This document shows, one piece after another, positions 43,995 to 61,149 of a stretch of DNA of 64,000 nt. The notes under the pieces were generated by a model. The model ran no database searches and was not told the DNA's origin. It saw only the letters and a program-made list of their open reading frames with translations. Positions within the stretch are counted from its first letter, which is position 1, and each line of letters starts with the position of its first letter. The translations under genes and the position numbers were made by a program. The stretch spans positions 1-64,000 of the forward strand of contig CAZYCQ010000001.1 in NCBI GenBank assembly GCA_964645535.1, in the 5' to 3' direction. This stretch comes from an uncultured archaeon (GTDB lineage Archaea > Asgardarchaeota > Heimdallarchaeia > Heimdallarchaeales > Kariarchaeaceae).

Positions 43995-44333
43995 ATGGAT
44001 TTAAGAGAAATACAAAAAAAACAAAAGGAATTTATCCTTTCTCGAAGATGGGATCGATTTTCTGCAACCCAAGTTTTCAGTCATCTGATTGAGGAGCTCG
44101 GAGAAGTAGTCAAATTCTTTCTCTATGAAGAAGGTTATAAGGTCAAAGGAGCAGGCCATGAAGGGATAAATAGGGAAAACATGGGCTCTGAATTCGCCCA
44201 AGCGTTCAATCTTTTCCTTCAATTAGCGATTGCAGCAAACATTGATCTTGAAGAGGTATGGAAAAAAGAAATGAAAAAAATGGAACAACGTTTTTCAGAA
44301 CAGGTTTGGAAAGATCTTGCAGAAAAGACCTAG
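43995..44333 (+). CDS. MazG-like nucleotide pyrophosphohydrolase
   Basis: HLIEELGEV, EFAQ..LAIAANIDLEE..KM..RF; start at ATG 43995. Confidence 0.8.
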   Translation: MDLREIQKKQKEFILSRRWDRFSATQVFSHLIEELGEVVKFFLYEEGYKVKGAGHEGINRENMGSEFAQAFNLFLQLAIAANIDLEEVWKKEMKKMEQRFSEQVWKDLAEKT

Positions 44334-44935
44334 GAAATCATCTTCAAAAAGTATTGATGAATGCCTGTATTGCCAGAAAGTTCTGGGTGAAATGTTGATG
44401 CGAGGATTTTTTCTTTTTGCACAATAACGGGATGGCCATCAAAACTTGCAAGAACATCCAACTCCTCTCCTATCTCCTCAATGATTGGCGCACGGATGAA
44501 AATAGCATCTAAATCCGTTTCTATTTTTGAGATATGCAGTGGAACGGAAAAAGAATCTTTTTGCCGGCCGTAGCCATTTCGTAAAATGGTCATATCAAGG
44601 ACAGGAAAGGCACCTTCCTTGATTTCACTTTCAGCATTCCGTTTGACCCGCTTTGCCAAAAGGATTGCACCTGCGCAAGTGCCAAAGGCAGGAAATCCAT
44701 TTGCAAGGAGATCCCTTAGTGCTGGGAGCAACCCCGATTTTGAGCCCTGCTTGATCATGGCGGTACTTTCGCCCCCTGGCATTATTATCCCGTCTAAACC
44801 ATCAAGATCTTCAGGAAGCAGAACCTGGCGAATTTCGATATTTATTCCGAGGTTCTTCCCAGCTTCTTTGACAGTAGCTTCATGTTCTTCGATGGCTCCT
44901 TGGAGCCCAAGTAAACCAATAGTTCGATCCTTCAC
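44330..44935 (-). CDS. pdxT: PLP synthase glutaminase subunit
   Basis: LQGAIEEH, PGGEST, GTCAG, RNGYGRQ, FIRAP, FHPEL. Confidence 0.97.
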   Translation of the reverse strand: MKDRTIGLLGLQGAIEEHEATVKEAGKNLGINIEIRQVLLPEDLDGLDGIIMPGGESTAMIKQGSKSGLLPALRDLLANGFPAFGTCAGAILLAKRVKRNAESEIKEGAFPVLDMTILRNGYGRQKDSFSVPLHISKIETDLDAIFIRAPIIEEIGEELDVLASFDGHPVIVQKEKILASTFHPELSGNTGIHQYFLKMIS

Positions 44936-45877
44936 TTAGAGATTTGCACCCCTGAGCTGTAATTTCTTGTCTTCATCCAGATTTGAAACATCAAGCCCAG
45001 GCATAGAAGCCCTTTCACTCACCATGCTTTGAGCTTCTGCAACTTTTTCTGGGTTTTCCCAGTGAGTGACAGCCATCACTATTGCTTCAGCTCTTGCTTC
45101 AGGATCTTCGGATTTGTAGATCCCAGATCCGACAAACACCCCATCACACTTCATCTGCATCATCATTGCTGCGTCAGCTGGTGTAGCGATCCCACCTGCT
45201 GCAAAATTCACCACAGGCAATCGTCCAAGTTCTGCTACTTTGAGGACAGTCTCATAGGACACACGCATTTCTCTTGCCAAGATCATCAGTTCTTGTGGAT
45301 TGTCTTTTGCGGCAACCACTTGACGAATTCCGTTGTTTACCATTCTCATGTGACGGATTGCTTCGGCTACATTTCCAGTACCCGCCTCCCCTTTTGTTCG
45401 GATCATGGCACTTCCTTCCTCAATACGGCGAAGCGCCTCTCCAAGGTCTCTGCATCCATTCACGAACGGGACCGTGAAATCCCATTTCCATACGTGGGAG
45501 GCCTCATTTGCGGGAGTGAGGACTTCAGATTCATCGATCATGTCAACGCCGATCTCTTCAAGAAGACGTGCTTCCATTGTATGACCAATCCTGCATTTTG
45601 CCATAATAGGTATGCTGACAGTTTCCATTGTTTCTTTTATTGCCTGTATGGTTGCCATACGAGCAACACCTCCTCTAGCTCGGATATCGGCAGGCAACTT
45701 GTCGAGAACCATTACTGCAACTGCACCAGCATCCTCTGCAATGCCTGCCTGAGTGGGATTGGTCACATCCATTACAACTCCGTGCTTGACCATTTTGGCA
45801 AATCCACGTTTAAGGTTAGTGGAACCAAGCGTAATTTCGACATCCCCATATTCCCTGAGGATCTTTCTGTCTTTCAT
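44936..45877 (-). CDS. pdxS: PLP synthase lyase subunit
   Basis: [66 protein letters not shown]. Confidence 0.98.
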
Positions 45878-45946
45878 AGGATGGCTTCTGTTAATATTAT
45901 TTAATTCCTTTTACTTTGAGAAATCAAAATTCAGCCCAGACATTTT

Positions 45947-46402
45947 CTAATCCAAATCTTTAGTCCGAACCATATGCTCTTTGGCTATTTCTGTCTCATA
46001 AGCAGCAATTGTGAAGAAACCTCCTATTACGAACCCTATATTGAACAAGGGAACTTGGAATCCTTTTGGTTGGAGAATGATGCCAAGTAAAGTAAGGATA
46101 ATGAAAATCAAGGCAAACCGAAACAAGAAGGAAGGGGCAATTTCGTGAATGTCCCAAACTTTGTTGATATACGGTCGTATCAAAATACCAATCCCAATGA
46201 GAATGCCTACAATTATCCCGATAAAAAGCCATATAGTAATTGTTCGAAACAGCGCCAGAGTCGCGGTAGGTGATGGATTCAGAAGAAAAACTAGTAGGTA
46301 CGTGAATAACACCATGCCAAATTGAATCACGAGGACTATGCGGAAGAAACGTGCATATTCAATTCTATTTTTTTCAAAGAATGTATTGAGCGCCTGCATC
46401 AA
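45947..46402 (-). CDS. Four-TM membrane protein, unknown function
   Basis: Four hydrophobic helices; co-directional with its neighbours. Confidence 0.6.
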   Translation of the reverse strand: MMQALNTFFEKNRIEYARFFRIVLVIQFGMVLFTYLLVFLLNPSPTATLALFRTITIWLFIGIIVGILIGIGILIRPYINKVWDIHEIAPSFLFRFALIFIILTLLGIILQPKGFQVPLFNIGFVIGGFFTIAAYETEIAKEHMVRTKDLD

Positions 46403-46406
46403 AATC

Positions 46407-47561
46407 TCACTGATCAGATTTTACAAGTTTTTTGAGAATTGCAAGAAATATCCAAGCAATCAGTATATTCCAAATGAAGGAGGTCCAAATCTCTGTGAAA
46501 TAAACTGGGAAGAGTTCCAAGGCCACAAATGTTCCGCCAGGATAGGAAAGGTCTTGAATTGGTTTCAACCCGAAGAAAAAGAAAAGAACTACGAAAATTG
46601 AGGGAGCAAGAAGTATCATGTCGTAATCTCCTTCTCTCCATGCTAGAGTATCCTTTTTTGATGCAATCATCCTTAGAAGTATTCCCATGTTAAAGAAAAG
46701 AGTGGAAAGAACCGATGCAAAGAAGACATTTGCCGGAGATATCATCACAGACCCCATAGAACCTTCTGTGAACAGATCATATAGTGGTTCCAAGTAAGTT
46801 GGAGAAGAAAGGTCAGAAAGCAAAGAATGATCCAATCGATGGACAAACAAGAGAGCAGGTACCAAGGTTGAAAGGAAACCCAATATTACAAGTGCAGTTC
46901 CAAGGAAGGAAAGCTTTGAAGCAACATCACTACTGTATATATCCTTAGAACGAATTCTCAAGAAGAGAAAGAACATAAGTAAAATAGCAATCAGGGATAA
47001 GATTAAATCAGCTAAAGGTAGAGGACCTCCAAAAAGCATTATTTTGATCCCGCCAATGGTTCCACCAATGCCTAGATCTACATCGATTGCCCAGTAATCT
47101 GGTGCAACAACTCTTCCAAAATGTCCAAGTGTCATCACGAAAATCGTGAAAGCAATGGTGTGAATCATCAAAATTGTACTCCATGATGTAATTTGGGAGA
47201 ATTTGGTGACTAGCATACCTGTCAACAGGGTTGTGAGGATCAATGTACCTAGATAGGTTTCGAACAAAGCAATTGAAGGAGAACCAAAGTTATTGGTTAA
47301 TCCCAACCCCGCTGCCAATGTTACCAGCAATGTTGATGTAGCATTTTTCGTGTAACCCACAACAATGAAAATTACAGCTAAAGTAAATACCAAAGTTGAA
47401 GGGGCAACATCAAAGCCAAAAATGTTTTTTAGATCAAACCAAGTTACATTGAATGATCCTGTCACAAAAACAAGAACCATTCCAACTATAGTAAGGAGTA
47501 AGTTGTCTCGTCTAAGGGCGAAATCCACATCCCTAAAACGAACTCTGTTTACAGCGCTCAT
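46407..47561 (-). CDS. Polytopic membrane protein (about 10 TM), unknown function
   Basis: 384 aa, almost entirely hydrophobic helices. Confidence 0.65.
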   Translation of the reverse strand: MSAVNRVRFRDVDFALRRDNLLLTIVGMVLVFVTGSFNVTWFDLKNIFGFDVAPSTLVFTLAVIFIVVGYTKNATSTLLVTLAAGLGLTNNFGSPSIALFETYLGTLILTTLLTGMLVTKFSQITSWSTILMIHTIAFTIFVMTLGHFGRVVAPDYWAIDVDLGIGGTIGGIKIMLFGGPLPLADLILSLIAILLMFFLFLRIRSKDIYSSDVASKLSFLGTALVILGFLSTLVPALLFVHRLDHSLLSDLSSPTYLEPLYDLFTEGSMGSVMISPANVFFASVLSTLFFNMGILLRMIASKKDTLAWREGDYDMILLAPSIFVVLFFFFGLKPIQDLSYPGGTFVALELFPVYFTEIWTSFIWNILIAWIFLAILKKLVKSDQ

Positions 47562-47676
47562 ACAATTGTGAGAGCCAGATTAATATATTAACTCTTTTCA
47601 GAGGTCACGGCGCACACAAGGAAATATTCCATGGAATTTTGATTGCTGTTTTTATCTGAAGAGAAAATGAACCAAT

Positions 47677-48246
47677 ATGGAAACAATAAAGTTGATTACA
47701 TCAAACGTCCATAAATTCGAGGAAATTCAGGTAAGATTTTCTGATCTTGGCATCAATCTTGAACATATTCAATTTCCCTATCCGGAAGCTCAAGCAGAAA
47801 CCATCAGAGACATCGCCATCCAAAGTGCCGCGACAATTTTAACCTATATTCAACCCCCTTTTCTGATAGAGGATTCAGGAATTGCGATCGAACAGTTGAA
47901 GGGATTTCCAGGTCCTTACAGTTCATTTGTTTTTAAAACGGTAGGTTGGAAGGGAATTTTGAAATTGATGAGAGACGAAAAAAATAGAAAGGCGAGATTC
48001 ATCTCGGTAATTGTTTTCATTGATTCTTTTCGCCAGATGCATGTGTTTGAAGGAATTCAGGAAGGGCATATTGCAGAAGAAGGGCGTGGCAACAAAGGAT
48101 TTGGATTTGATCCTATCTTCATTCCCGAAGGATCAAAACTGACCTTTGCAGAAATGGATATCCAAACAAAGAATGAATACTCACACAGAGGAAAATCCTC
48201 AGGACAACTATACCACTTCTTGGCAGAAAAACAAATGAAAGGATAG
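47677..48246 (+). CDS. rdgB: Non-canonical purine NTP pyrophosphatase (Ham1/ITPase)
   Basis: TSNVHKFEE, EDSG, GFPGPYS, GFGFDPIF, SHRG. Confidence 0.95.
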   Translation: METIKLITSNVHKFEEIQVRFSDLGINLEHIQFPYPEAQAETIRDIAIQSAATILTYIQPPFLIEDSGIAIEQLKGFPGPYSSFVFKTVGWKGILKLMRDEKNRKARFISVIVFIDSFRQMHVFEGIQEGHIAEEGRGNKGFGFDPIFIPEGSKLTFAEMDIQTKNEYSHRGKSSGQLYHFLAEKQMKG

Positions 48247-48342
48247 TTCAACAAATGTAAGTAAAATGGGAAATGTGGATTTGATGCAATAATTCTTGGA
48301 GAATCAAGAAGGCTTTTATCTCAGAATATAGCAAGGAAAGAT

Positions 48343-48741
48343 ATGGGAACATTTGGAACAGTACTAGGTTCAATACTTGGAGTTGGAGGCCTTGTAGTTG
48401 TTATCTATGCAACAGCAGTCCTTACATCCGGCTTTTTACCATTCCTATGGTTCGGTCTTTTTGGATTTATAGGAGGAGCCGCTTTAGGCGCACTGAATTC
48501 AAGAAAAGCTAAAACTCAGGCAAAATACAAGAATGAATATGTGTTCTATGCATCCTCTGCTTTTGTAGCAACAATTGCCTTATTGATCTATTATTTGGTG
48601 TTTGCACTTGACAAAGTCAGGGAAAAGGCAGCAGACCCCTCAACATTTCCTGCTGAAATGTTGGTATCTACCGCGGCAGGGGCAGCCATTGCCATGATGA
48701 TTGGGTTCGGATTGGTGATTGCAAACTCAATCGCGGACTAA
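48343..48741 (+). CDS. Small four-TM membrane protein
   Basis: Four Gly/Ala-rich hydrophobic helices. Confidence 0.6.
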   Translation: MGTFGTVLGSILGVGGLVVVIYATAVLTSGFLPFLWFGLFGFIGGAALGALNSRKAKTQAKYKNEYVFYASSAFVATIALLIYYLVFALDKVREKAADPSTFPAEMLVSTAAGAAIAMMIGFGLVIANSIAD

Positions 48742-48790
48742 ACTCAACAAAAGGTTTTTAGGAAATTCTAGATCAAATTCAAACAATCCT

Positions 48791-50074
48791 ATGATTGATC
48801 CTAAACTAATTCGAGAAAATCCAGATTTTGTCAAGCAAAATCTTGCTCGACGACAAAATGAAGAATACCTGAAAATGGTGGATGAATTCCTAGAGAAAGA
48901 TGAGAAATGGAGACACATAACCAAAGAGGTTGAAGCCCTCAGAAGAGAAAGAAACACCTTTTCCAAAAAAATACCTAAACTTCAAGGAGAGGAGAGAACA
49001 CAAGCCGTCAAAAAGATGAAGGATCTTAAGGCACAACTTGACCAAAAGGAAAAGGAACTGCAGGAAATAGAAGAGAGAAGAAAATGGTTACTTGATAGAA
49101 TTCCAAACCTTCTCCATGAAACAGTACCATTTGGTGAAAGTGATGAGGACAATGTACCTATAAGAACATGGGGAGAAAAACCAACCTTTGATTTTGAACC
49201 CAAAGACCACCATGAACTTCTTGAATTAAATAATCTTGCAGATGTCGATCGTGCAAGAAAAGTTTCGGGAGCACGGTTCTATTACCTCAAAAATGAAGCC
49301 ACAATTCTTGAACTTGCTTTGATTCAATTTACCTTGAACATTCTGAAAGAAGAGGGGTTCACTCTTTTTACCCCACCCACTTTGGTGAGAGAAAGAGCCC
49401 TATATGGTACAGGTTTCCTGCCAACAGGAGCTGAAGACATTTACCGAATTGAAGGAGAGGATTTGAATCTAATCGGGACAAGTGAAGTTGCTTTAGGCGC
49501 CTACCATATGGATGAGACACTTCTAGAGGATCAGTTGCCCCTGAATTATTGCGGTATCTCAAATTGCTATAGAACTGAGGCATCCGCCTCAACAAAAGAT
49601 GATAAAGGAATTTTCAGGGTTCATGAATTCAAAAAGGTGGAAATGTTCAAGTTTGCTCACCCAGAACGTTCATGGGATGAACAAGAAGAGATGATACGGA
49701 TTGCAGAACGGGTATTTCAAGAATTGGGAATTCATTATCGAGTTGTCAATATCTGCACGGGAGATATTGGAGCAGTTGCAGCAAGGAAGTATGACATAGA
49801 AGCATGGATGCCAGGACAGGGACGATACAGGGAAGTCGTGTCCTGCTCGAATTGTACGGATTATCAGGCAAGAAGGCTGAACGTCAAGTACCGTGAAAAA
49901 GAAGGTGCTCCTCCAAAAGGGTTTGTTCATACTCTGAATTCAACCGCCATTGCAACAACACGTGCAATTGTTGCAATTCTCGAGAATTACCAGCAAAAGG
50001 ATGGAAGTATTGTTATTCCTGAAAAACTAAGAAGGTACACTGGATTTGACAAAATCAGTCCAATCAACGCTTGA
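48791..50074 (+). CDS. serS: Serine--tRNA ligase (standard type)
   Basis: MIDPKLIREN, IPNL, SGARFYY, GTSE, GIFRVHEFKKVE, KYDIEAW, SCSNCTDYQARR, HTLNST. Start at ATG 48791. Confidence 0.97.
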   Translation: MIDPKLIRENPDFVKQNLARRQNEEYLKMVDEFLEKDEKWRHITKEVEALRRERNTFSKKIPKLQGEERTQAVKKMKDLKAQLDQKEKELQEIEERRKWLLDRIPNLLHETVPFGESDEDNVPIRTWGEKPTFDFEPKDHHELLELNNLADVDRARKVSGARFYYLKNEATILELALIQFTLNILKEEGFTLFTPPTLVRERALYGTGFLPTGAEDIYRIEGEDLNLIGTSEVALGAYHMDETLLEDQLPLNYCGISNCYRTEASASTKDDKGIFRVHEFKKVEMFKFAHPERSWDEQEEMIRIAERVFQELGIHYRVVNICTGDIGAVAARKYDIEAWMPGQGRYREVVSCSNCTDYQARRLNVKYREKEGAPPKGFVHTLNSTAIATTRAIVAILENYQQKDGSIVIPEKLRRYTGFDKISPINA

Positions 50075-51896
50075 ATTTTCTTTTTATCCAGACTAGAATT
50101 AATGGAGCAATTAGAATTGCATAGAAGGGAATAGGACTAGAATTGGCAGAATCGGGAGTAGCTAATCTTGTTAATATTTCAACCTGATCTGCCCTTCCAG
50201 TAAATATTTCTGTTGAATCTCCATGGCTATTTTGATCTGGGATCAAGGTGGAGAGGATCATTGCAGTATAATCTGGGACTAGCAAACCATATTGAATTCC
50301 AAGCGAGACAATCTGTTGTTTGAATTCGTCGGTACCAATCAATGTGTTCAATCCAACCAAGTACTGTATCCTTTGGAGCGCCCACATCTTTTCAGCATAG
50401 GGTTGTCCGCCTTCCGTTATCAGGGCATTTTCAGAGACACGAAACGTCTCATTCCCTATCCGGTAATTAGCGGTGATGGTAACATTTTGTTCCACAAATT
50501 TTCCAGAAACAACAATTTCACTGCCATTTGATAAAGCAAGGAAACCGGAGGTAAGATTGATATTAAGACTTTCAAGAACGACACCTGCGGTAAAGGTGAA
50601 GGATATTTGATCGATTGGGGGTACATAAAGTTGTGAAAAGAGTGCAGAAATGGCATCACTTATCTCTTCATCGTTTCGAACCAATACGAATGTTCCATTG
50701 TTATCCAATGCAATTCCTTCTAGGAGTGCCTCCACACCAGATTCACCGATCGCAATAGTTGAAATGCCCACTCCCAAGGTATTGCTTTCTCTTGTATGAG
50801 ATCTGATGGCGTCGGGATCAGTAATTCCAGCAGTTGGTACACCATCAGATATGAGAATCATCAATTTTTCAGCATCTGATTCAAAAAATTGATTGAGCGA
50901 GACCGTAACGGCATCATAGATGTTCGTACTTGTCTGCGCATGGAGGGTTTCAACGAAACCGATTGCATCTTCTTTATTTTGTTCTGTTGCCGCCCTAACT
51001 TCCGCCCACATGGTTGTTGCCTCATCGCTGAAGGGGACAATATTGAATTGGTCATTAGGTCCCAAAGTTTCAATGATTTCCGTTAAGGCAAGCTTTGCCT
51101 GATCCAATCTAGTTCCACTCATTGAACCGGAGACATCAATGGTAAATATAATCTGCCTTGTTGATGGAGAATCTGCCAATTCAAGTTTCGGAGCCAAAAA
51201 GAAATTGAAGAATCCATTCGTCCCGTCTGAATAGGAAACTATGGAAGCACTAAGATCATAGTCTGAAAGGACATAATTCAAGGAAACAGCACTTGTGGGA
51301 AGTGCATCGTTCACAACCAATTTAAAACCATTTCCGATCCGCGTGAGAGATTGGCCTTCCAAACCCTTGACCTCTATTGCAAGCACGGTAGAGACTGTTG
51401 AAGTTATTTCCAAATCCACATCAAGTTGGAAGGACAAAACCGTGTCAGGGAGCAAGGGCAATAGATACCGTCCGAAGTCTCTTGTTAGCATACCCTCAAG
51501 GAATAATTTTACTTCCAAAGATTCTTTGACAGGGTTATTTATTGAAATAAGGTATTTGTCTTCGACAGGATCAATAAGCATTCCGACCTCTTCTGCGGTC
51601 ACAGTTTCATTGTAGATTTGTTCGGCTTCTTTGGCTTCTGTAACTCTACCCCATAGAGTAATGTTGGAATTGGATAGGGATGCATTACTCAGAAACAGAC
51701 CTTCTTGTCGAGGAAGAACGATGGTAAAATCCCTCTGTTCAGGCGCTACAATCAGACTATAAGTCAGATTGGCATAGTTGTCTTTTACTGTTCCCGAAAT
51801 GGACAAGTCCAGCCTATCTTGGCCTTGAGTGATTTGGGGAACAGATACGGTAATCATGAACACGATGATAAGGATTGAGAGTACTTTTTTTTCCAT
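50064..51896 (-). CDS. Secreted VIT + von Willebrand A domain protein (ITIH-like) with C-terminal membrane anchor
   Basis: Signal peptide; EAKEAEQIYNE (VIT); IDVSGSM MIDAS, STNIYDA, ISDG, KMWALQRI, YTAM; TM + KRKFKR. Confidence 0.9.
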   Translation of the reverse strand: MEKKVLSILIIVFMITVSVPQITQGQDRLDLSISGTVKDNYANLTYSLIVAPEQRDFTIVLPRQEGLFLSNASLSNSNITLWGRVTEAKEAEQIYNETVTAEEVGMLIDPVEDKYLISINNPVKESLEVKLFLEGMLTRDFGRYLLPLLPDTVLSFQLDVDLEITSTVSTVLAIEVKGLEGQSLTRIGNGFKLVVNDALPTSAVSLNYVLSDYDLSASIVSYSDGTNGFFNFFLAPKLELADSPSTRQIIFTIDVSGSMSGTRLDQAKLALTEIIETLGPNDQFNIVPFSDEATTMWAEVRAATEQNKEDAIGFVETLHAQTSTNIYDAVTVSLNQFFESDAEKLMILISDGVPTAGITDPDAIRSHTRESNTLGVGISTIAIGESGVEALLEGIALDNNGTFVLVRNDEEISDAISALFSQLYVPPIDQISFTFTAGVVLESLNINLTSGFLALSNGSEIVVSGKFVEQNVTITANYRIGNETFRVSENALITEGGQPYAEKMWALQRIQYLVGLNTLIGTDEFKQQIVSLGIQYGLLVPDYTAMILSTLIPDQNSHGDSTEIFTGRADQVEILTRLATPDSANSSPIPFYAILIAPLILVWIKRKFKR

Positions 51897-52037
51897 ACAT
51901 TAATCATTTGTTTCAAACATATATATCCCAATCGGGTATTATTGACATCCCCATAAATTGTATATAATGGATAAATTATTCCAATTCAAGCCATGTTGAG
52001 ACTAAATATAAATACAAGTTGTTCCGAGGGAGTATAG

Positions 52038-54230
52038 ATGCAGAAAACCGTACCTGATTCCCTTTTCAATTTATTTTATCGAGTAGAAGAGTTGAACTCA
52101 AATATTTACAAGAGTTCTGCATATCACGAGACTGCATCAATTTCCGATATTTGGGAGAAATTCATCACGGATGTTTTTCCTTTGTTGGTTAAGTTGCTTG
52201 AAGAAAGTTCTTTGCTCTTTGAACGATATTATGACGAGTTTCGGATCATCCAGGAAAACCAAGAGAATCAAGACATGAAGATTTTGACTCGTCTAAAAAA
52301 TATCATTGAATTAAGAGCTCATCTGGTTTTTCTTGCCTTTACATACAACAATTTTCTATCTGAAGGAATTTTTGATTTCAGATCTGAACATGCAACGGAT
52401 GGTAAGATTAAAGTCATCTCAAACCTTCATTCAATGCTTGATCTTTTTTTTGATATTAAGCTTCCCTTGGAACTATTCGAATCGATTTCGGATATTGCCA
52501 AACGTGCGCTTCATACCTTGAAAAATGAAAAACTAATCCCGATGATTGAGAGTACCTTGATAAGCAATCCAGATAACATTTTTTCTCTTTTGGAAGGCTG
52601 GCAGGAAATCGGGGATTTTTATAATCTCTCCCTCCCCAATCAAATCAAATTAATTGCAGAAGATTGGTGGTGGGAAGATCCTTTGGCTCTCTACCACCTT
52701 CATGATCAGGGAGAACGTTATTACCTGAAGATATTGGAGGTAATTTCCGCGTATCCTGACTTTGAATATAAAGAAAACTTGAAACAGGTAAAAGAACGCA
52801 GTATTCCCATTTCCAAAACATTGGCTTTTTACAACCTCTCCCGACATCATCTAAATGTAGCCATGGCGGCATTGCGTGAGGGAAATTTCAAAACCGCACG
52901 GGAATTTCTTGAACAGTCCTCAAATTTTGCACGGGTGGCATACGAAAACGTGATGAGCATAAGTTATTTCAAAGGGAAGGGTGAGATTCTTGAAGAAATC
53001 ACGGAACATCTCAGCCATGTTGAAAATCTAGTCAACCTTTCGGAAATTGCCTTGAAGTTTCAGGATCTTTTTGAAACCTATGATGTGAAAAAGCCGGAAA
53101 ATACATTGAATCTGATTAAGGAATTGATTGTCGATTTGGAAGGATTTTCAACGTATCAATCAAGAGATTATGCAACCATTATTCTATTATACAACATTTC
53201 ACTTTCAAACGGACAATTTGTCCTCTCCCGAAGGTCAAACCCTTCAACTTTCAGAAAAGAAATTCTCAAGCCATTTGAAACGTTCAAGCACACTGTTTAT
53301 AGCCGACTCCCCAATTTCTTTAATTTGGAAAATCCCCTTATTGTTCGAAAACATCAAGAGGAAATGGAAGAGATTCATTTTGTGTCGCTTTTTTTCCCAG
53401 GAGAGGTAGATGAAAAACAGAGTTTTGTGAAATTGGTTGAATCGATACAAAGGGTGCTAAAAGCAAAGGAATTAGATGAAAAAGTAGAAATCATCCAGCA
53501 GGACAATATCATTCTCTCAATTCTTCTTCAAACCCGGGCATACTTTTATTTGGTCTCTTCAGGAAAAACATTGGAACCATTGCTCAATGAACAGCTTCAA
53601 AAGATATTCCAGAGGTACATCTTTGAAACACAAAGCAAAGTGTTTCTCTTCCAAAACGATTTCAACCAGCTCATATTGCAGTATATTACCATTCATCAGA
53701 TTCTGCAAAGGTTTACTCTCATCGCAATTGGTTTACTTGAACAAAACCAACAAAAAGATGATACAATAATAGTATCAATAAAAAATGCAATAGAGGATGA
53801 CCAAAAGTTCTCCACATATATTGACCTTGTCCAAGAAGGGTATCTGAATTTGCTGAACATTGCATCAAATCAAGAAGACATTCCACCAGACCTAGTGGCA
53901 AAAATCAAAGCCAAGCTTGCATTGATAGATGCCATAAAAAAATTTTATGGAGCATTAAAAAATTTCTTTCTTGGATTGGCAACCACCATCCATGGAAAGC
54001 CAAGTAACGCCTTACAATTTTTCGGGAAAGCAAAGGATCAAGCCTTTGAAGCCGCAAGAATATTGGAACGAAATAGTACGGAGGAACCCCAGGAACAACT
54101 CCTGGAGGATATTTTTTCATTCGGTGTTCTCTCGCAACACCATGAAAATTCCCCGTCACAAGTTACAGTAAATATGAAAAACGTTGAGAAAATATTGCTT
54201 CTGCTTAAGGGAATAATTTTCAACCTCTAA
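52038..54230 (+). CDS. Large all-alpha (TPR-like solenoid) protein, unknown function
   Basis: 730 aa ORF; helical pairs such as ALREGNFKTAREFLEQSSNFA and ALQFFGKAKDQAFEAA. Confidence 0.65.
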   Translation: MQKTVPDSLFNLFYRVEELNSNIYKSSAYHETASISDIWEKFITDVFPLLVKLLEESSLLFERYYDEFRIIQENQENQDMKILTRLKNIIELRAHLVFLAFTYNNFLSEGIFDFRSEHATDGKIKVISNLHSMLDLFFDIKLPLELFESISDIAKRALHTLKNEKLIPMIESTLISNPDNIFSLLEGWQEIGDFYNLSLPNQIKLIAEDWWWEDPLALYHLHDQGERYYLKILEVISAYPDFEYKENLKQVKERSIPISKTLAFYNLSRHHLNVAMAALREGNFKTAREFLEQSSNFARVAYENVMSISYFKGKGEILEEITEHLSHVENLVNLSEIALKFQDLFETYDVKKPENTLNLIKELIVDLEGFSTYQSRDYATIILLYNISLSNGQFVLSRRSNPSTFRKEILKPFETFKHTVYSRLPNFFNLENPLIVRKHQEEMEEIHFVSLFFPGEVDEKQSFVKLVESIQRVLKAKELDEKVEIIQQDNIILSILLQTRAYFYLVSSGKTLEPLLNEQLQKIFQRYIFETQSKVFLFQNDFNQLILQYITIHQILQRFTLIAIGLLEQNQQKDDTIIVSIKNAIEDDQKFSTYIDLVQEGYLNLLNIASNQEDIPPDLVAKIKAKLALIDAIKKFYGALKNFFLGLATTIHGKPSNALQFFGKAKDQAFEAARILERNSTEEPQEQLLEDIFSFGVLSQHHENSPSQVTVNMKNVEKILLLLKGIIFNL

Positions 54231-54286
54231 TCATCAGGACCATAACGTTAAGTAAAAAAACAGGGAAAGAATAGAAGAAACAGCCT

Positions 54287-54359
54287 GCCATAGTAACTCA
54301 GTTGGTAGAGTGGCAGATTCGTAATCTGCAAGTCGCGGGTTCAAGTCCCGCCTATGGCT
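54287..54359 (+). tRNA. tRNA-Thr (anticodon CGT), no intron, CCA not encoded
   Basis: GCCATAG/CTATGGC acceptor stem, ACTC/GAGT D stem, GCAGA-TTCGTAA-TCTGC anticodon arm, GCGGG-TTCAAGT-CCCGC T arm, discriminator T. Confidence 0.97.
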
Positions 54360-54371
54360 TTACTAGTTTGA

Positions 54372-55088
54372 TCAGAGAGATGTGATCAACCTCTTTTCGT
54401 TTCCGTGTCGAATTTCAATAACCTTGCCTTTCTTGATATGTACAATCCTGTCTGCCTTTTCAGCCAAGGAGGGATCGTGGGTAACCAAAACCACTGTTGT
54501 ATTTTTCTCTTCATTCGCCCTGATAAGAAGATCAAATATTCGAGTTCCTGTATCAACATCAAGGCTACCTGTCGGTTCGTCTGCAAAAATAATCTGGGGT
54601 TCCGTCACCAATGCGCGAGCAATTGCAACTCGTTGCTTTTCCCCTCCAGAAAGCTCTTCCGGGCGATGATTTGCCCGTTCATCAAGACCAACCAATTCAA
54701 GATATTCCTCTACTTTCTGTTTCCTTTGGGAAGAAGTCATTTCCTTTAATCTCAAAGGAAGCTCGATATTTTGATAAGCAGTCAATACCGGGATCAAATT
54801 ATGGTCTTGGTAAATCGTGGATATGACATTTCTCCGGATTTCAGTCCTTACCGATTCTGGCGCTTTTGCAATTTCCTTTCCTTTGATCCAGACTTCACCG
54901 GAACTTGGACGGATCATGCAACTGAGAATATCAAGAAGTGTAGTTTTTCCTGATCCTGAATGCCCCACGATTGCGAGAAACTCACCATTCTCTATTTGAA
55001 AAGAGACATCGTCAAGAGCCCTGACAATATCTTTTTTCCTTCGGTATTCCTTGACCAAATTCTTAATTTCTATTGCAGGTTGCAACAA
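54372..55088 (-). CDS. ABC transporter ATPase, LolD/MacB-type
   Basis: GHSGSGKTT, HRPEELSGGEKQRVAIARA, ADEPTGSLD, VTHD. Confidence 0.92.
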   Translation of the reverse strand: MLQPAIEIKNLVKEYRRKKDIVRALDDVSFQIENGEFLAIVGHSGSGKTTLLDILSCMIRPSSGEVWIKGKEIAKAPESVRTEIRRNVISTIYQDHNLIPVLTAYQNIELPLRLKEMTSSQRKQKVEEYLELVGLDERANHRPEELSGGEKQRVAIARALVTEPQIIFADEPTGSLDVDTGTRIFDLLIRANEEKNTTVVLVTHDPSLAEKADRIVHIKKGKVIEIRHGNEKRLITSL

Positions 55089-55129
55089 TATTTCATTTGT
55101 AAAATCGTTTAAAAGGACTCATATCATTT

Positions 55130-55747
55130 CTAGTCTGCTTCTGGAAACTTCAGAACCTTAACTTTGTTGACTTCAAATACTTTGACGGGGAAATATTCCT
55201 CAACCTTTTCTTGGATTTGCTCTGCGAATTTGTTTTGGAGCAAATTAGTAACAAAGGATTGGAAAGTAAGATCACCCACTAGTTCCATTAGGGTTTCTTG
55301 CATGATTTTTCGGATTACCTTCTGTTCCGATGTTTTAACCCGAATAGGTGTAACACAGGTGAGCGTGATTCTCAGTTTAGATTTGTCTTTGAGTGTAAGA
55401 TTGTAAATTCCGTCAATTCGGGATCGGTGATTTCGGACTTGGGAACGGATGAAATCTCTTGAAAGCTCATAACGGAAGAATTCAGTATGAGCCACATTGC
55501 CTTTAAGATCAACGATTTTGAAAGTGATAAGTTTGTTCATGTCCTTGAAATTGGCGGTCAAGGTCATGAGGTCAATTTTCACCGTTCTTCCTATAATACT
55601 CTCCTCAGAACTTGATGGGGTTTCCCCTATCACCTTGTCATCAATGTACAAGGGGGTCTTGATTTCTACCCAAATCTTGTTTCTCCATTTTTCAATGGAG
55701 GACATTACTTTCTTTTTTCTGCGGGTTGCGCCTCTTCTTGCACTCAT
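55130..55747 (-). CDS. rps3ae: 30S ribosomal protein S3Ae (eS1)
   Basis: KWRNKIW, IGETP, GRTV, ELSRDFIRSQVRNHRSRID, IRKIM, FPV..EVNKVKV. Confidence 0.93.
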   Translation of the reverse strand: MSARRGATRRKKKVMSSIEKWRNKIWVEIKTPLYIDDKVIGETPSSSEESIIGRTVKIDLMTLTANFKDMNKLITFKIVDLKGNVAHTEFFRYELSRDFIRSQVRNHRSRIDGIYNLTLKDKSKLRITLTCVTPIRVKTSEQKVIRKIMQETLMELVGDLTFQSFVTNLLQNKFAEQIQEKVEEYFPVKVFEVNKVKVLKFPEAD

Positions 55748-55854
55748 TGGACTATTCCTCTAGTCGATGTATAATTGAGGATGAGATCGATTCCATTTTA
55801 AACTTACCATAAGTCACAGATCGAAGCTTTCAATTCTCCTGCCCAATAGGTGGT

Positions 55855-56043
55855 TCAGTATTTTCCCTCATATTGCCTGATCAAGTCACGCAGAGCCATC
55901 CGAATTACTTCCGATCTATTGGCGTACCGTTTCTTCCTAACCAATTCATCAATGGCATTGATCATTTCTGGTCTCATTTTTGCGGATGTGGGTTTCAACT
56001 CAGCTTTGGGTTCTTCATCGACAATATTTTGTTTTGGAGCCAT
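55855..56043 (-). CDS. Ribbon-helix-helix (CopG/CdrS-like) regulator
   Basis: TSAKMRPEMINAIDELV..YANRSEVIRMALRDLI. Confidence 0.85.
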   Translation of the reverse strand: MAPKQNIVDEEPKAELKPTSAKMRPEMINAIDELVRKKRYANRSEVIRMALRDLIRQYEGKY

Positions 56044-56134
56044 GATTAGTATGAGATATCAGAAAATTTAAACCTAGGTTTTACAATTTTTGGGGTCAAA
56101 AACATATTTAACAGCTTTTTCTCCATGGGGAATT

Positions 56135-56323
56135 GTGTGGTTTGTGATTCAATGCAGCAGGTATGAGTGTGCAAAATTCCTAGTGACTAAGGGGGGAACA
56201 AAAACAAGAAAATGTCCATATTGTAGGAGGGTGAATAAGGTGACGGATCGTCTAATTGCCAGATTCCAGACACAGGAAGAGGCGAGGGAATACGCCAAAA
56301 AGAAAAACATGATTGTTCCATAA
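56135..56323 (+). CDS. DUF1922-like zinc-ribbon protein
   Basis: FVIQC..CAKFL..TKTRKCPYC..EEAREY; probable GTG start at 56135. Confidence 0.7.
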   Translation: MWFVIQCSRYECAKFLVTKGGTKTRKCPYCRRVNKVTDRLIARFQTQEEAREYAKKKNMIVP

Positions 56324-56390
56324 CGTTACGGGGATAGCCCATCAGTAGTTCATATGTATATAGTTTCAAATATATCGCAAAGAAGTGTAA

Positions 56391-56999
56391 ATGATGAACC
56401 TCGCAAATTTCTTGAATGATGTATTTGTCATTCATGAAAATGGATACTGCCTTTTTCATGAGAGTTATGGCAATTCTGATTTCAAGGTCGATGGTGTGGT
56501 TATCAGTGGGTTTTTGTCTGCGATTGATTCTTTTACACATAATTGGGATTCCGGTGCAAGAAAGTTAGAAACCGATAATTACCGATTGATATATCATCGA
56601 AGAGAAGACCTGATCTACGTTGCTCGAGTTCCTCGAACCGTTGATGAGGAAACGATCTTCAATTTTCTTCAGGAAATCTCAATGAAAATGGAAAAACTTG
56701 TCCCAAAATCCTTAGAGCTGAATGGAAATGTTGAACCATTCAAGATTATTAGCCAATTGGTATATCAATATTTCAGCGGTATACGTGCGCCATTGACAAT
56801 GGAAACATCGCTGGAAATTAGTGGAAAGACCTTGAGAATCAAAAATCCCTATGAGGCTAAAATTTTCTCCTATCTTAGACTGAAAGGACGGGTGAAGCTA
56901 AGAAAAGTTGTTGAAGCCTTGAAAATCCCTGAGGAAAAAGCCATGCTTGCTACCAAGCAATTGATGGAAAAAGAGCTGATCAAGGTCGCAGTCTCTTAA
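56391..56999 (+). CDS. Longin-domain protein with C-terminal winged helix
   Basis: VFVIHENGYCLFHESY..ISGFLSAIDSF..LIY..LIYVARV longin pattern; EAKIFSYLRLKGRVKLRKV..LMEKELI wH. Confidence 0.75.
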   Translation: MMNLANFLNDVFVIHENGYCLFHESYGNSDFKVDGVVISGFLSAIDSFTHNWDSGARKLETDNYRLIYHRREDLIYVARVPRTVDEETIFNFLQEISMKMEKLVPKSLELNGNVEPFKIISQLVYQYFSGIRAPLTMETSLEISGKTLRIKNPYEAKIFSYLRLKGRVKLRKVVEALKIPEEKAMLATKQLMEKELIKVAVS

Positions 57000-57087
57000 A
57001 TTCCATAAAAGCAGATTTTTATGTTTGATTAATGATGTTTTTATTTTCTTGACTCACCTATTAGAATGGAACAGCCGAGTGGACACA

Positions 57088-59175
57088 ATGAGTACGGAAA
57101 GGATTCTTGAACCCATGAAGTTTATGGAGCCATACTTGGATGAAGAAACCACGGAAATTGATGTTGAAGCTTTGATTGGGCTTTTATTGATTTCAAAAGA
57201 AACAAATGTCAAAAGCATTTCCAGAACCCTCGGAAGGAAACAAATCGAAGTAGAGGAACTGCTTGGACGAATACTCCAATCGGGACTTTTCAAATTGAAG
57301 TTTGATGGATCCAAGGTGATCGTTCAAGAGAAAAAATTCAAGCCCAAGACAAGTAATGCTCCCTTGACTGTTCAAGATCAATTCTTTCTGTCCTATGTTA
57401 AAGCTCGGCATATGCTAAGTCTAAAAGAACTTGCAGAGGTTTTTGAGGCAAGAGTGTCTGAAATTCAGAAAAAAATTGCCATCTTTGCCGCACGAGGACT
57501 CATAGAAATAATCCACCAAGATGGAGATTCCTATTTCTTCATTGTGAAATACCTAAGGGAGAAAAAAACACCAGAAACCATCTCGGTAATGGACATTATG
57601 ATTATTGGGTATTTGATGGTGAAGGGGGTAACCACAATCGAAGAAATAAGTCTTGATCTAGATGTTCCAACCCATAGAGTTCAATCCGTGTTGGTTGATC
57701 TCCTCCTTTCTGAAACTATCATTTGTGTCTTTGAATATCAGAAAAACTTTCTACGGGAAAACTCATTGACTCTCAAAATCCGCCAAGTCAACATTACCTT
57801 TCCGACCAAGGAGATATCTGCCCTCAATGAACACCAAAGAACACTCATCGGATTGGTGGGACTCGCCCAAAAAATATCAATGGATAAGCTCACCACAATT
57901 ACCGGACTTTCACGAACAAGAATCATGGAGCTTCTGTGTACATTGACTGTGATGACAACCTACCGGTTTATAATGGACTTCGAAGAGGATGTCATGCTAG
58001 AAGAACCACCAATTTTCTATCCAGCCCGTTCATTGGAAGAAATGGAGGATTTGAACTTCTTCAATTACAGGGAGCTACTTGGGAGAATTTCAACCTCCAA
58101 AAAAATTAGGTTGAGCCAGCTTTCAAGAAAAATGAAAATTCCAAAAGATGAGCTTTACTTACGCTTGATTGACCTTTATGTGGAGGGTCACCTCAAGGGA
58201 AGATTAATCTCAACTGATGAATTCGTTGTGGAAACAATACGGAAGTCAGAAACTTCACAGGTTGAAACTTTATCCAGTGAAGAAAAAATCATTTTAGGAG
58301 GGTTGATTGCTTCAAAAAGACTTACTTGGCCAGAAATAGGAGTTCTACTGAAAATTGATAGAGAACAGTCGATTACCCTTGCATATTCCATGGTGGCCAA
58401 AAACATTGGTGTGATGGAAATCAGAAATGAGAAGGAACTTTTCCTTTTGCAAGAACCATCATTGCCACCATTGGTGACTGTTGAGGAATTGAGTTTTGAG
58501 GATCAAGTCTTGCTAGGATATATGGCTTCTGCTACAAACCCCAATTTAAAAGAAGCCAAGGCGATTCTCCGCAAACCAAGGGTACATCTGCTCTCTCACA
58601 CCTATCTTTTGATAGGATCAGGTCTTCTTGTAGCAAAACAATTGAAACAAAGGTTCAATGTTCATAGGATCCGGATAGAACAACCGAAATCGTCAATTGA
58701 AACAAAATCATTCATTGTTCAGAAGGTTGCTAAAATTTTAGATCAGAATGTAGGATCCAAAGTTTCTCTTAAGAAAATTGCGAAGGAGATGGGGGAGGAA
58801 CCGCGAGTGATCTTTCAAACAGCCCTATTTTTGGTGGCCCAAGGATACATTGTGGGTAAACTTAGAGGAAATGATTTTATTGTGACTCGTTCCTTTGTGA
58901 AATTCAAGGTAGACCATTATTGCTATTTCTGTAATTCTAAGATTGAGAATAAGGATGAACCGTGTCCAGTATGTGAAAATGCCCCAATCAATTGCAGTGT
59001 GTGCAGAGGTTTTATCTCAGCCACAGATGATGTCTTGAAATGCCCGACATGCCAGAATCTTGCCCATCCTGAGCATCTTGAGGAATGGCTACGAATGAAA
59101 GGAGAATGCCCCATTTGCAAGATGAAACTTAGGGCAACACAATTTATCAGAATAGAGGCACCCCTGAAAATCTAA
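57088..59175 (+). CDS. Tandem winged-helix repeat protein with zinc ribbon and C-terminal RING finger (putative E3 ligase)
   Basis: Eight wH-like repeats of about 70-80 aa; CYFC..CPVC; CSVC-x12-CPTC-x4-HPEH-LEEW-x6-CPIC. Start set at ATG 57088. Confidence 0.82.
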   Translation: MSTERILEPMKFMEPYLDEETTEIDVEALIGLLLISKETNVKSISRTLGRKQIEVEELLGRILQSGLFKLKFDGSKVIVQEKKFKPKTSNAPLTVQDQFFLSYVKARHMLSLKELAEVFEARVSEIQKKIAIFAARGLIEIIHQDGDSYFFIVKYLREKKTPETISVMDIMIIGYLMVKGVTTIEEISLDLDVPTHRVQSVLVDLLLSETIICVFEYQKNFLRENSLTLKIRQVNITFPTKEISALNEHQRTLIGLVGLAQKISMDKLTTITGLSRTRIMELLCTLTVMTTYRFIMDFEEDVMLEEPPIFYPARSLEEMEDLNFFNYRELLGRISTSKKIRLSQLSRKMKIPKDELYLRLIDLYVEGHLKGRLISTDEFVVETIRKSETSQVETLSSEEKIILGGLIASKRLTWPEIGVLLKIDREQSITLAYSMVAKNIGVMEIRNEKELFLLQEPSLPPLVTVEELSFEDQVLLGYMASATNPNLKEAKAILRKPRVHLLSHTYLLIGSGLLVAKQLKQRFNVHRIRIEQPKSSIETKSFIVQKVAKILDQNVGSKVSLKKIAKEMGEEPRVIFQTALFLVAQGYIVGKLRGNDFIVTRSFVKFKVDHYCYFCNSKIENKDEPCPVCENAPINCSVCRGFISATDDVLKCPTCQNLAHPEHLEEWLRMKGECPICKMKLRATQFIRIEAPLKI

Positions 59176-59286: not shown

Positions 59287-61149
59287 ATGGCGTTTCTTAT
59301 GAAAGGAAGGATTATTGTCTTATTATTATTAATGTCCATATTTGCTGCGGCCATTCCCACAACAGTCCTAGGTCAGGAACAAGAGGGAATACCTTCTCCC
59401 GAGTTTACAGGGATAAGTGTGGATGGCAATACTGTCACTAGGTATGTATTTGATATAAATACAACAGTAAAGATTTCCTATACTGCAGACCGATTTGCAG
59501 TTGATGGAATTTTGCTGTTGGGTCAAGGAAGCAACTTGACTGAAGATATCGCCACCGCCAAATCTTCGAACTATTCCATGACCTTGGACGACCAGTTCAG
59601 AGACAAGAAATTTTTCTCAATTGAAATCAATGTAACGGAATTCACAAAGTTCTACGCATGGGCATGGTTCGGAGATATCACCAATGGAACCCGGGAAGTT
59701 ATAGACAATTTTGATGTGGATCGAGAAGGTGGTAATGGATACCATTATCTTTGGATCAAACAAGGCGAACGATATCCAGAATTCCAAATCATCAGAAATG
59801 CTACATTATATGAAGGTTCAGCAACAGATTTTGTGACAGAGCTCGGTACAACAGTCACTATCGAGTACAGAGTTTATAATCCACAAAATGCGACCAATGC
59901 TGTGATTGCCTTTAGCGACAACAATACAAATGTGTATAACAAAACCACCTCTACACAATTCAACATGACGTTTATTGAATTTGACCAGGCAACCAACTAT
60001 ACAACCTTTGCATTCAACTATACTCTTAATACAAGGGTCGTTTTCTTCTCTGCTTACAATTCAAAAGGTTGGGAAAGAAATGGTATCGATTCGAGAGCAG
60101 GAGTTGTCCACAAATTATCTGCCTATTTCAAATTCAATTCAACCCTTTATGATCTTGACACAAGGGAATTTACGGATTTAGACATTATTGCTCTTAATGT
60201 GACGACGTACAACCAGACTCAAGACGATCTGGTCTTCATGAGATACAGAACATACGACAATCTTACCGATACAGAGCCCACAAACTGGACTGAAGTGCAA
60301 CTGTTCAATATTTCCAACCCATATGAGGTGAACAAAACTGTCAACAATGTCACAGTTGCAACAACATTGGTCACGGTTTATGGATTTCAAATGAACGAAA
60401 CACTCAAATTTGACCAAAAATTAGAAGTACAACCGTTCGTGAAAAATAAGAACTTTACTGAATATTTGGATAAGAAAATTTTCGAAATAGTTGATTCAAG
60501 ACCATCTGGAGAATTGTTCATTGGAAATAACTCATACACAAATGTAACGGATTACACTGTCTTTTTCAAGGCAATCACTGAAAAAGGAGATCTCAAGGAA
60601 GTTGCAATTCTTTACGGTACTGATCCTGAAAACCTTACGAAGACTGTGGTCACCAATAAACCAAAAATAAAACAACGGGCAAATACAACAATAACATTAG
60701 ATCAGGAAGGAAATTACACATTTATTCTCAATATCACCAACTCTTTGAATCGAACAAGAATTTATACATCATTCCTGATTGTAGATCACACTGCCCCAAC
60801 AGTTTCAATTTCTCAGAAAGGTCAAGCTTCTCAAGGAATGATTGAAATCACTATCAATGTGGAGGATGAAAATGGCATATTGATAACCTATATCGATTGG
60901 GGTGACGGATTGGTTCAAGATGTCACAAATATGACAGAAGAAAGCCATACATACCGGAAATCAGGAGAGTATCAAATAACCCTCGTGTCAATTGATAAAG
61001 CAGGCAATATTGCAACCACAAGCATTAATGTGACAATTTCATTACCCACAACTACCGAAACACCAGTAAACACCAATCCAATTGGACTGGTTTCAATCCT
61101 TTCTGCTATAGCCATTGTTCCTTTCATTGGCAAAAAGAGGAAGCCTTGA
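59287..61149 (+). CDS. Secreted surface glycoprotein with Ig-like/PKD domains and C-terminal anchor
   Basis: Signal peptide; about 30 N-x-S/T sequons; VDHTAPTV, IDWGDG..HTYRKSGEY..DKAGN; Thr-rich linker, TM, KKRKP. Confidence 0.85.
   Translation: MAFLMKGRIIVLLLLMSIFAAAIPTTVLGQEQEGIPSPEFTGISVDGNTVTRYVFDINTTVKISYTADRFAVDGILLLGQGSNLTEDIATAKSSNYSMTLDDQFRDKKFFSIEINVTEFTKFYAWAWFGDITNGTREVIDNFDVDREGGNGYHYLWIKQGERYPEFQIIRNATLYEGSATDFVTELGTTVTIEYRVYNPQNATNAVIAFSDNNTNVYNKTTSTQFNMTFIEFDQATNYTTFAFNYTLNTRVVFFSAYNSKGWERNGIDSRAGVVHKLSAYFKFNSTLYDLDTREFTDLDIIALNVTTYNQTQDDLVFMRYRTYDNLTDTEPTNWTEVQLFNISNPYEVNKTVNNVTVATTLVTVYGFQMNETLKFDQKLEVQPFVKNKNFTEYLDKKIFEIVDSRPSGELFIGNNSYTNVTDYTVFFKAITEKGDLKEVAILYGTDPENLTKTVVTNKPKIKQRANTTITLDQEGNYTFILNITNSLNRTRIYTSFLIVDHTAPTVSISQKGQASQGMIEITINVEDENGILITYIDWGDGLVQDVTNMTEESHTYRKSGEYQITLVSIDKAGNIATTSINVTISLPTTTETPVNTNPIGLVSILSAIAIVPFIGKKRKP

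Follow-up and report, generated by a model that had tools for sequence, protein, structure and literature searches.

A putative RING-type E3 ubiquitin ligase with an eight-unit winged-helix array in Heimdallarchaeia, and evidence against its pairing with an adjacent longin gene

Within the first 64,000 nucleotides of contig CAZYCQ010000001.1 (assembly GCA_964645535.1; this whole stretch of DNA is called the window below), which derives from an uncultured archaeon of the class Heimdallarchaeia, a forward-strand gene at positions 57,088 to 59,175 encodes a 695-amino-acid protein made of eight winged-helix (wH) units, a C4 zinc ribbon, and a C4-H2-C2 RING variant. Its sequence and predicted fold indicate that the protein is probably a RING E3 ubiquitin ligase of undescribed build. 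We hold with good confidence that it is a RING E3 ligase in some form, and we lean slightly toward the more specific view that this is a single-chain RING-type E3, shared by Heimdallarchaeia with a few related Asgard lineages, that works independently of the product of the gene directly upstream. That gene (56,391–56,999, forward strand) encodes a 202-amino-acid protein in which a longin domain is fused to a wH domain (longin-wH), and an earlier note on this DNA had proposed a wH-solenoid E3 ligase with a longin adaptor. The wH array, the hallmarks of the RING domain, and the ubiquitin cascade of the genome support the ligase part of this proposal, but the longin adaptor lacks support because the gene pair is not conserved. 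What this work adds is a test of the longin pairing, which is for the most part rejected.

The C-terminal finger (58,993–59,121, forward strand) places eight Cys and His residues (C636/C639/C652/C655/H660/H663/C674/C677) in cross-brace spacing and is predicted to bind zinc. All eight ligands, in the order C4-H2-C2, are invariant among 31 homologues that share about 25% overall identity. Also kept in all 31 are W667 and P675, a Val or Ile at position 638, a Lys or Arg at position 678, and the four ligands (C612/C615/C626/C629) of the CxxC-x10-CxxC zinc ribbon that precedes the finger (58,921–58,974, forward strand), and thus the ribbon and the Trp-containing RING described in the earlier note are confirmed. 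The finger therefore carries the E2-binding residues (the hydrophobic residue after the first ligand, the helix Trp, and the last-loop Pro) together with a basic linchpin, and their retention in every homologue at such low identity is as expected from selection for activation of a ubiquitin-charged E2 (E2~Ub). Across all fetched finger proteins, orthologues included, the equivalent of position 678 is Lys or Arg in 87 of 158 matches.

The best sequence matches of the finger are the RING-H2 ligases RNF165/ARK2C and Arkadia (E values of 4e-6 to 1e-5), and its modeled fold resembles that of the U-box with Z scores of 8.0 to 8.3 (at Z 8.0, rmsd [root-mean-square deviation] 2.6 with 67 residues aligned). 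When the RING alone is compared, active RING-H2 ligases match about 100-fold more strongly than GATOR2 does. A PHD finger was rejected because the sixth ligand is an invariant His and no PHD family or protein is present among the matches, leaving the finger RING-like, as had been supposed.

The enzymes that such a ligase would need are encoded in the same genome, again as the earlier note had required. A pro-ubiquitin gene (contig C20:8971) whose product ends in GG-YGNF lies beside an E1 gene (C20:9200), and a UBE2D-like E2 (C28:14612 region) carries the HPN motif, the catalytic Cys, and the RING-contact loop motifs YPF and PA. A second cluster (contig C22:6928-11273; L061 and L069, where the labels used here are G for genome, with G000 denoting this genome, L for locus, P for library protein, and f for family) encodes two ubiquitin-like (UBL) proteins with AG-VW and AG-K ends, an E1, an E2, and an MPN protein. 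The C22 cluster also includes a membrane-protein gene whose product ends in a degenerate RING, and elsewhere (C52:4294-5647; L062) a Vps23-like UEV gene is followed by a gene that appears Vps28-like by eye. Of the 47 genomes in the host order, 46 have an E2-family gene, as do the four carriers of the array outside it.

The wH array spans amino acids 23 to 601 (57,154–58,890, forward strand) and is evident from AlphaFold2 modeling, hhalign comparisons, Pfam, and fold matches. The AlphaFold2 model of the 695-amino-acid protein (34 homologues as input; mean pLDDT 89.7, pTM 0.71) contains wH units at residues 23–86, 95–153, 167–234, 248–304, 327–384, 397–455, 470–528, and 542–601, each with the order helix-strand-helix-helix-strand-strand, and two cysteine-rich modules follow them. 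All five repeat motifs and both PCI-type wing motifs that had been quoted for this protein are present in its translation, and the repeats do model as winged helices. In hhalign comparisons, unit-versus-unit scores are 25 to 67 (probability 71–98%), whereas column-shuffled controls reach at most 16 (5%). A wH from outside the array, that of longin-wH, nevertheless scores 30 to 44 against the array units, so that the similarity among repeats is partly generic wH likeness, which tempers the claim of repetition. The pairs R2-R7, R3-R4, R6-R7, R2-R6, R2-R4, R4-R7, and R5-R8 score 53 to 67, clearly above the outside wH. Thus, the wH fold is certain, and internal duplication is clear for these best pairs only.

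Profile comparisons connect the array with PCI-class wHs. The Pfam PCI model scores 23.6 bits against the 695-amino-acid protein (cut-off 22) and matches 20 of 22 family members, among which weak Pfam matches to DDRGK (four members) and UFL1 (two members) also occur. The top profile matches of the array are CSN2 (E 3.7e-4), RPC34, and DDRGK1. Single units find fold matches over 60 to 77 residues with Z scores of 8 to 9.7, wherein the wHs of transcription factors, PCI proteins, and DDRGK1 are tied. Fold searches of solved structures returned none that matches the whole eight-wH arrangement. A query search of the ESM Atlas gave nothing above a template modeling (TM) score of 0.25, and its sole 0.81 value is a feature match, a result that shows neither novelty nor absence. 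The helix-turn-helix parts are nearly charge-neutral (2.4–4.1 Lys/Arg versus 2.0–3.9 Asp/Glu per unit), conserved basic residues are few, and the isoelectric point (pI) of the orthologues varies from 5.6 to 9.5. These features favor a role for the array as a protein-docking arm rather than as a sequence-specific DNA binder, but they are compatible with binding to RNA, ribosomes, or chromatin as well.

A mechanism can be proposed on this basis. E1 would charge ubiquitin onto the UBE2D-like E2, both components being established for this genome. The C-terminal RING would then bind E2~Ub via V638, W667, and P675, and K678 would hold the conjugate in its closed, active state, much like the surface formed by I30, W58, and R69 of srfp, the archaeal RING E3 of Candidatus Caldiarchaeum subterraneum; both steps are suggested by residue conservation. 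In srfp, the I30Q substitution abolishes ubiquitylation and the W58A and R69A substitutions impair it (PMC5654768). The zinc ribbon would serve as a joint between the RING and the eight PCI-class wHs, and the latter may form an extended docking arm that presents a protein substrate or a large complex to the E2, which is the weakest step of the proposal.

Several observations weigh against this interpretation. The Pfam zf-RING_2 score of the finger (24.3 bits, E 3.9e-5) lies below the cut-off of 27.3 and its ligand order is non-canonical, for which reasons strict membership in the RING-H2 (C3H2C3) class was rejected. The ribosomal protein aS34, which is RING-like and for which no ligase role is shown (PMC11698992), matches the finger at E 0.0016, and the RINGs of GATOR2 form junctions between C-terminal domains (CTD-CTD) and have a scaffold role (PMC10938194). 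The gene for the 695-amino-acid protein is located away from the ubiquitin, E1, and E2 genes in the loci examined, and one carrier of the array (G013, 85% complete) gives weak, partial E2-fold matches only. Finally, because DNA-binding wHs tie with those of PCI proteins and DDRGK1 in the single-unit comparisons, a protein-docking role for the array is not established.

A rather unlikely alternative is that the protein is an E3 ligase that uses its wH array to bind nucleic acid or a ribonucleoprotein, such as the ribosome, an RNA polymerase-DNA complex, or chromatin, and that it ubiquitinates proteins in stalled translation, transcription, or repair complexes. The models for such a function are the UFL1 complex on the 60S subunit and Nse1 in Smc5/6. 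A Foldseek search with the whole model returned UFL1-DDRGK1 (E 1.1e-5), TFIIIC tauB, SelB, RPC82/62, and Nse1 as top matches, which are multi-wH proteins that bind nucleic-acid machines. Most orthologues are basic, with pI values up to 9.5, and repeats 5, 7, and 8 carry a charge of about +3. In one library protein (P0085, 942 amino acids), the same array is fused not to the RING but to an Mrr-like nuclease fold whose active site seems degenerate. However, the Foldseek matches superpose with rmsd values of 15 to 34 Å and TM scores of at most 0.12 (15.8 Å and 0.10 for UFL1-DDRGK1), so that the likeness exists at the level of single units only. Moreover, the recognition helices have few conserved basic residues, and neutral or acidic proteins occur among the orthologues (pI 5.55 and 6.34).

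Still less probable is that the ribbon and RING are structural, providing dimerization or docking as in GATOR2/SEA, IFT-A, and aS34, and that the protein is a non-catalytic scaffold. The ribbon-RING tandem does match WDR24 and WDR59 (E 5e-4 to 9e-4) and, by Foldseek, IFT144/WDR19 (88 columns, rmsd 3.8), and the CTD-RING junctions of GATOR2 serve as a precedent for a scaffold (PMC10938194). The ribbon-RING tail is also a widely reused Asgard module, which is found at 11 to 14 places in this genome and accounts for most of 758 library matches; the distinctive feature of the 695-amino-acid protein is the fusion of this tail to the wH array. Against a scaffold stand the V/I, W, P, and K/R residues kept in all 31 homologues and the far stronger resemblance of the RING alone to active ligases than to GATOR2. 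Among the other proteins of the window is one of 127 amino acids (7741–8124) that combines a double zinc ribbon with the same C4H2C2 RING and is a small, srfp-like candidate.

We next consider where the putative ligase occurs. An array-only profile detected the wH array in 45 of the 47 genomes of the host Heimdallarchaeia order (44 of the 46 others), mostly as a single copy, and in four further Asgard genomes, one of them Candidatus Sifarchaeum CR_Bin_142, for a total of 49 among 400. The same profile did not find the array in two further families of the class (22 and 12 genomes), a result that is not proof of absence, because these metagenome-assembled genomes (MAGs) are incomplete and scoring was confined to the top candidates of each genome. 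Among named relatives, a Candidatus Heimdallarchaeota MAG is the nearest, with 67% identity across the searched part. The tree built from 22 array proteins has long branches that meet and carries no claim on origin. NCBIfam has no family for either the 695- or the 202-amino-acid protein.

Variants of the architecture were encountered as well. Five genomes (G004, G006, G009, G014, and G018; e.g., L091:8058) carry extra, diverged array-ribbon-RING paralogues. Another paralogue (P0031, 892 amino acids) has an N-terminal part resembling MerR-HTH and resolvase sequences, possibly an in-frame IS607-type insertion. The Ca. Sifarchaeum protein (P0042, L070:6001-7992), whose gene follows a proteasome-subunit gene, begins with a zinc ribbon at its N terminus and continues with a wH array that is shorter and weakly matches UFL1 (E 1.2e-5). 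Between this array and the ribbon-RING tail is a helical stretch that resembles a steadiness box or SHOCT domain by eye, with no sequence support for the steadiness box from the Protein Data Bank (PDB).

As to the gene pair itself, the two open reading frames (ORFs) are co-directional and lie where they had been reported, with 88 bp between them (57,000–57,087). The ATG start of the ligase gene yields 695 amino acids and an alternative TTG at 57,025 would yield 716, but the latter was rejected because the close orthologues P0004 and L003 begin at the ATG position. The sole DNA run that contains the stretch is a hot-spring metagenome, possibly its source, and one 13-kb contig from this run covers both genes, although it is not independent evidence. 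Since this contig spans the pair and relatives from runs DRR684995 and DRR684990 keep the same gene order, misassembly was rejected as the source of the adjacency.

The claim that the ligase and longin-wH genes form a conserved pair is not supported. Both genes are present in 39 genomes but are adjacent in just one of these, the present genome, and additionally in one close relative (83% identity). They share a contig in eight genomes, with distances (from coordinates entered by hand) of 0.8 (this genome), 2.4, 3.2, 10, 49, 55, 89, and 96 kb, the last two being those in the two complete genomes. The pair is therefore within 3.3 kb in three of the 39 genomes and 10 kb apart in a fourth. The two genes are two genes apart in G003 and three genes apart, and convergent, in the distant family f8.

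Comparison with the congeneric genome G002 explains the arrangement. In G002, the gene that ends immediately ahead of the ligase gene is pdxT, and the one next to a MazG-like gene is longin-wH; in the window these two genes have traded places, with longin-wH before the ligase gene and pdxT against the MazG-like gene. By tblastx, a single inversion of the 12.7-kb block at 44,330 to 56,999 (pdxT, pdxS through SerRS, VWA, ABC ATPase, eS1/S3Ae, and longin-wH) interconverts the two orders, except for a small further inversion nested within it, which involves the surroundings of the ABC and eS1 genes. The left breakpoint falls between the MazG-like gene and pdxT, and the right breakpoint lies at the 88-bp intergenic segment. 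Because pdxT is directly upstream of the ligase gene in six genomes from several genera of family f1, parsimony suggests that the order in the window is the derived one. Most likely, then, a recent inversion moved longin-wH into the place of pdxT and next to the ligase gene.

Other genes are more constant neighbors. In the sister family f2, glnA is directly upstream of the ligase gene in eight loci, and eight other gene families are more frequent ligase neighbors than longin-wH. The loose regional linkage is common to pdxS/T, the MazG-like gene, the ABC ATPase, two membrane-protein genes, and a PKD surface-protein gene, and because longin-wH shares it with these more frequent neighbors, it reads as an old chromosomal region. 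In addition, an AT-rich element about 40 to 65 bp upstream of the ligase ATG is shared with relatives whether the upstream gene is longin-wH or pdxT (an alignment of four sequences, clear in three) and might be a promoter of the ligase gene itself; a promoter and terminator scan yielded nothing usable with its sigma-70 model, which is unsuited to archaea. Complex prediction for the 695-amino-acid protein and longin-wH, both given as alignments, scored 0.00, which speaks neither for nor against pairing.

Given these data, we consider it quite improbable that longin-wH is a dedicated adaptor, or a substrate, that links the ligase to small-GTPase or membrane signaling. Some observations do fit this idea. 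Both genes are conserved across the order, and a full-length array and a full-length longin-wH co-occur in the outside lineages f8 and f21, the first of which joins G000 and G003 in having the pair within 3.3 kb. In G006 and G008 a different longin gene occurs two genes upstream, and in G016 the upstream region has a gene for a Rab-like GTPase, but longin neighbors are not rare events in a genome with at least 14 longin-like ORFs. Longin-wH aligns across both domains with complexes containing NPRL2/Npr2 (Z 9.2 and 8.8, rmsd about 12), and the WDR24 RING is reported to ubiquitinate NPRL2 (PMC10938194). In contrast, the adjacency traces to one inversion, 89 to 96 kb separates the genes in complete genomes, pdxT or glnA occupies the upstream position elsewhere, and full-length longin-wH is present in G146, G206, G139, and G166, where the array was not found. 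More remote still is a nutrient-sensing pair in which the ligase and an NPRL2-like longin-wH would parallel GATOR2 and GATOR1 and longin-wH would be ubiquitinated according to nitrogen status, an arrangement with which the loose linkage in distant lineages, and the upstream position of pdxT or glnA in both large families, would agree.

As a separate observation, the gene directly upstream of the ligase gene in both large families is one for glutamine handling, either pdxT (a glutaminase; f1) or glnA (f2) (e.g., L077:7785-9080 and L036:7296-7916), and pdxS/T is one gene from the ligase gene in family f8. This may reflect regional synteny or a nitrogen link.

The neighboring protein does prove to be a longin-wH fusion, as previously described. 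Its model has a longin domain at amino acids 6 to 131, with a five-stranded sheet between helices in the order beta-beta-alpha-beta-beta-beta-alpha-alpha, and a wH at amino acids 153 to 199. Many longins match at Z 11 to 13.4 over 115 to 130 residues, including a CPLANE subunit (Z 13.4, rmsd 3.2, 124 aligned) and Vamp7 (Z 12.5). A DUF1922-like small zinc-ribbon gene (56,090–56,323, forward strand; Pfam E 3.5e-6) adjoins longin-wH in 10 of 12 loci, lies close to it in others, and is a better candidate partner of longin-wH than the ligase gene. Across the order, most genomes keep it beside or close to longin-wH, oriented either way, and in several of them a small gene that appears UPF0047/YjbQ-like by eye accompanies it. 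A helical protein of 730 amino acids (52,038–54,230) with weak SRP68/TPR matches has homologues near longin-wH in G002, G016, and G020.

On the other side of the ligase gene, a PKD-domain surface protein is encoded at 59,287 to 61,149, and its gene recurs close to the ligase gene in 12 loci from the two large families. The gene from 61,198 onward is a homologue of one that encodes a subtilase (S8) in relatives. Two membrane-protein genes (46,407–47,561 and 48,343–48,741), neither with a convincing Pfam match, are each near the ligase gene in 12 loci. No ESCRT genes were recognized in the ligase neighborhoods examined.

The claim that no characterized protein has this architecture was upheld within the scope of our searches: the literature examined, whose coverage excluded most subscription journals and the supplementary asCOG tables, contained no description of a wH-array-ribbon-RING protein, and no solved structure matched the whole array. 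According to Liu et al. (bioRxiv 10.1101/2020.10.19.343400), Asgard archaea commonly have lineage-specific multidomain architectures, as well as NPRL2-like longins, and therefore an eight-wH-RING build is less surprising than it would otherwise be. The characterized archaeal E3 in the literature searched is a tiny stand-alone RING protein. If our assignment is correct, a large single-chain ligase with an eight-wH arm would mean that substrate-selective E3s existed in close relatives of eukaryotes. The protein would join parts that are separate in eukaryotes, namely PCI/UFL1-type wH arrays and the ribbon-RING of GATOR2 and IFT, and so would bear on the origin of those complexes. With its cognate ubiquitin, E1, and E2 identified in the genome that encodes it, the protein also offers a clean target for in vitro work. 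Its scope is limited by the two families of the same class in which the array was not found and by the lack of support for a longin or GTPase link.

Among known systems, srfp is the functional comparison for the RING. Its cross-brace finger likewise has shifted third and fourth ligands and one extra Cys (PMC5654768), and its genome encodes cognate ubiquitin, E1, and E2. The spacing of I30, W58, and R69 (28 and 11) is close to that of V638, W667, and K678 (29 and 11), as judged by residue comparison rather than sequence alignment. Unlike the 695-amino-acid protein, which has 600 residues of wH array and ribbon in front of its RING and is encoded outside ubiquitin clusters, srfp is a small stand-alone RING protein encoded inside a ubiquitin-E1-E2 operon. 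The RING-H2 ligases RNF165/ARK2C, Arkadia, and EL5 share the E2-binding hydrophobic residue, Trp, Pro, and basic linchpin, but their ligand order is C3H2C3 and none of the matches has a wH array.

For the array, UFL1-DDRGK1 (UFBP1; PDB 8b9x, 8ohd, and 8c0d) is similar in having tandem PCI-like wHs, and single array units align with DDRGK1 at Z 8.4 to 8.9. UFL1 is a non-RING, scaffold-type E3 for UFM1 (PMC9627666). The complex does not superpose with the array over multiple domains (rmsd 15–26 Å, TM 0.10), and the UFL1 family PF09743 has no match in the 695-amino-acid protein or in this genome, although the genome test is weak because its control was also blank. Homology to UFL1/DDRGK1 beyond the common wH fold is therefore not indicated by these comparisons. 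Nse1 of Smc5/6 likewise places a variant RING after its wHs, with Foldseek E values of 5e-3 to 2e-2, but it has two wHs rather than eight, lacks an intervening ribbon, and works with Nse3 and Nse4. The Nse1 finger is of the C4HC3 type. No entry for ESCRT-II (Vps22/25/36) is present among the listed Pfam or fold matches, which does not exclude a likeness to ESCRT-II. The PCI subunits of the proteasome lid, CSN, and eIF3 share the PCI-type wH but combine N-terminal TPR-like helical repeats with a single C-terminal wH, whereas the array model contains no helical solenoid.

Like NPRL2 and NPRL3 of GATOR1 and the Asgard NPRL2-like longin families (bioRxiv 10.1101/2020.10.19.343400), longin-wH has a longin followed by a small C-terminal wH-type domain. 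However, it is half the length of NPRL2/NPRL3, has no Pfam NPR2/NPR3 match, and finds better longin matches in CPLANE, Vamp7, Mon1-Ccz1, TRAPP, and AP/COPI (Z 11–13). NPRL2 has a catalytic arginine finger. The beta4-beta5 loop of the longin-wH model is two residues long, and hence this arginine finger has no evident counterpart in the model. Lastly, WDR24 and WDR59 of GATOR2/SEA and WDR19/IFT144 of IFT-A resemble the putative ligase in having a zinc ribbon directly before the RING, but in those proteins the ribbon-RING follows a beta-propeller and an alpha-solenoid, whereas in the 695-amino-acid protein it follows the wH array.

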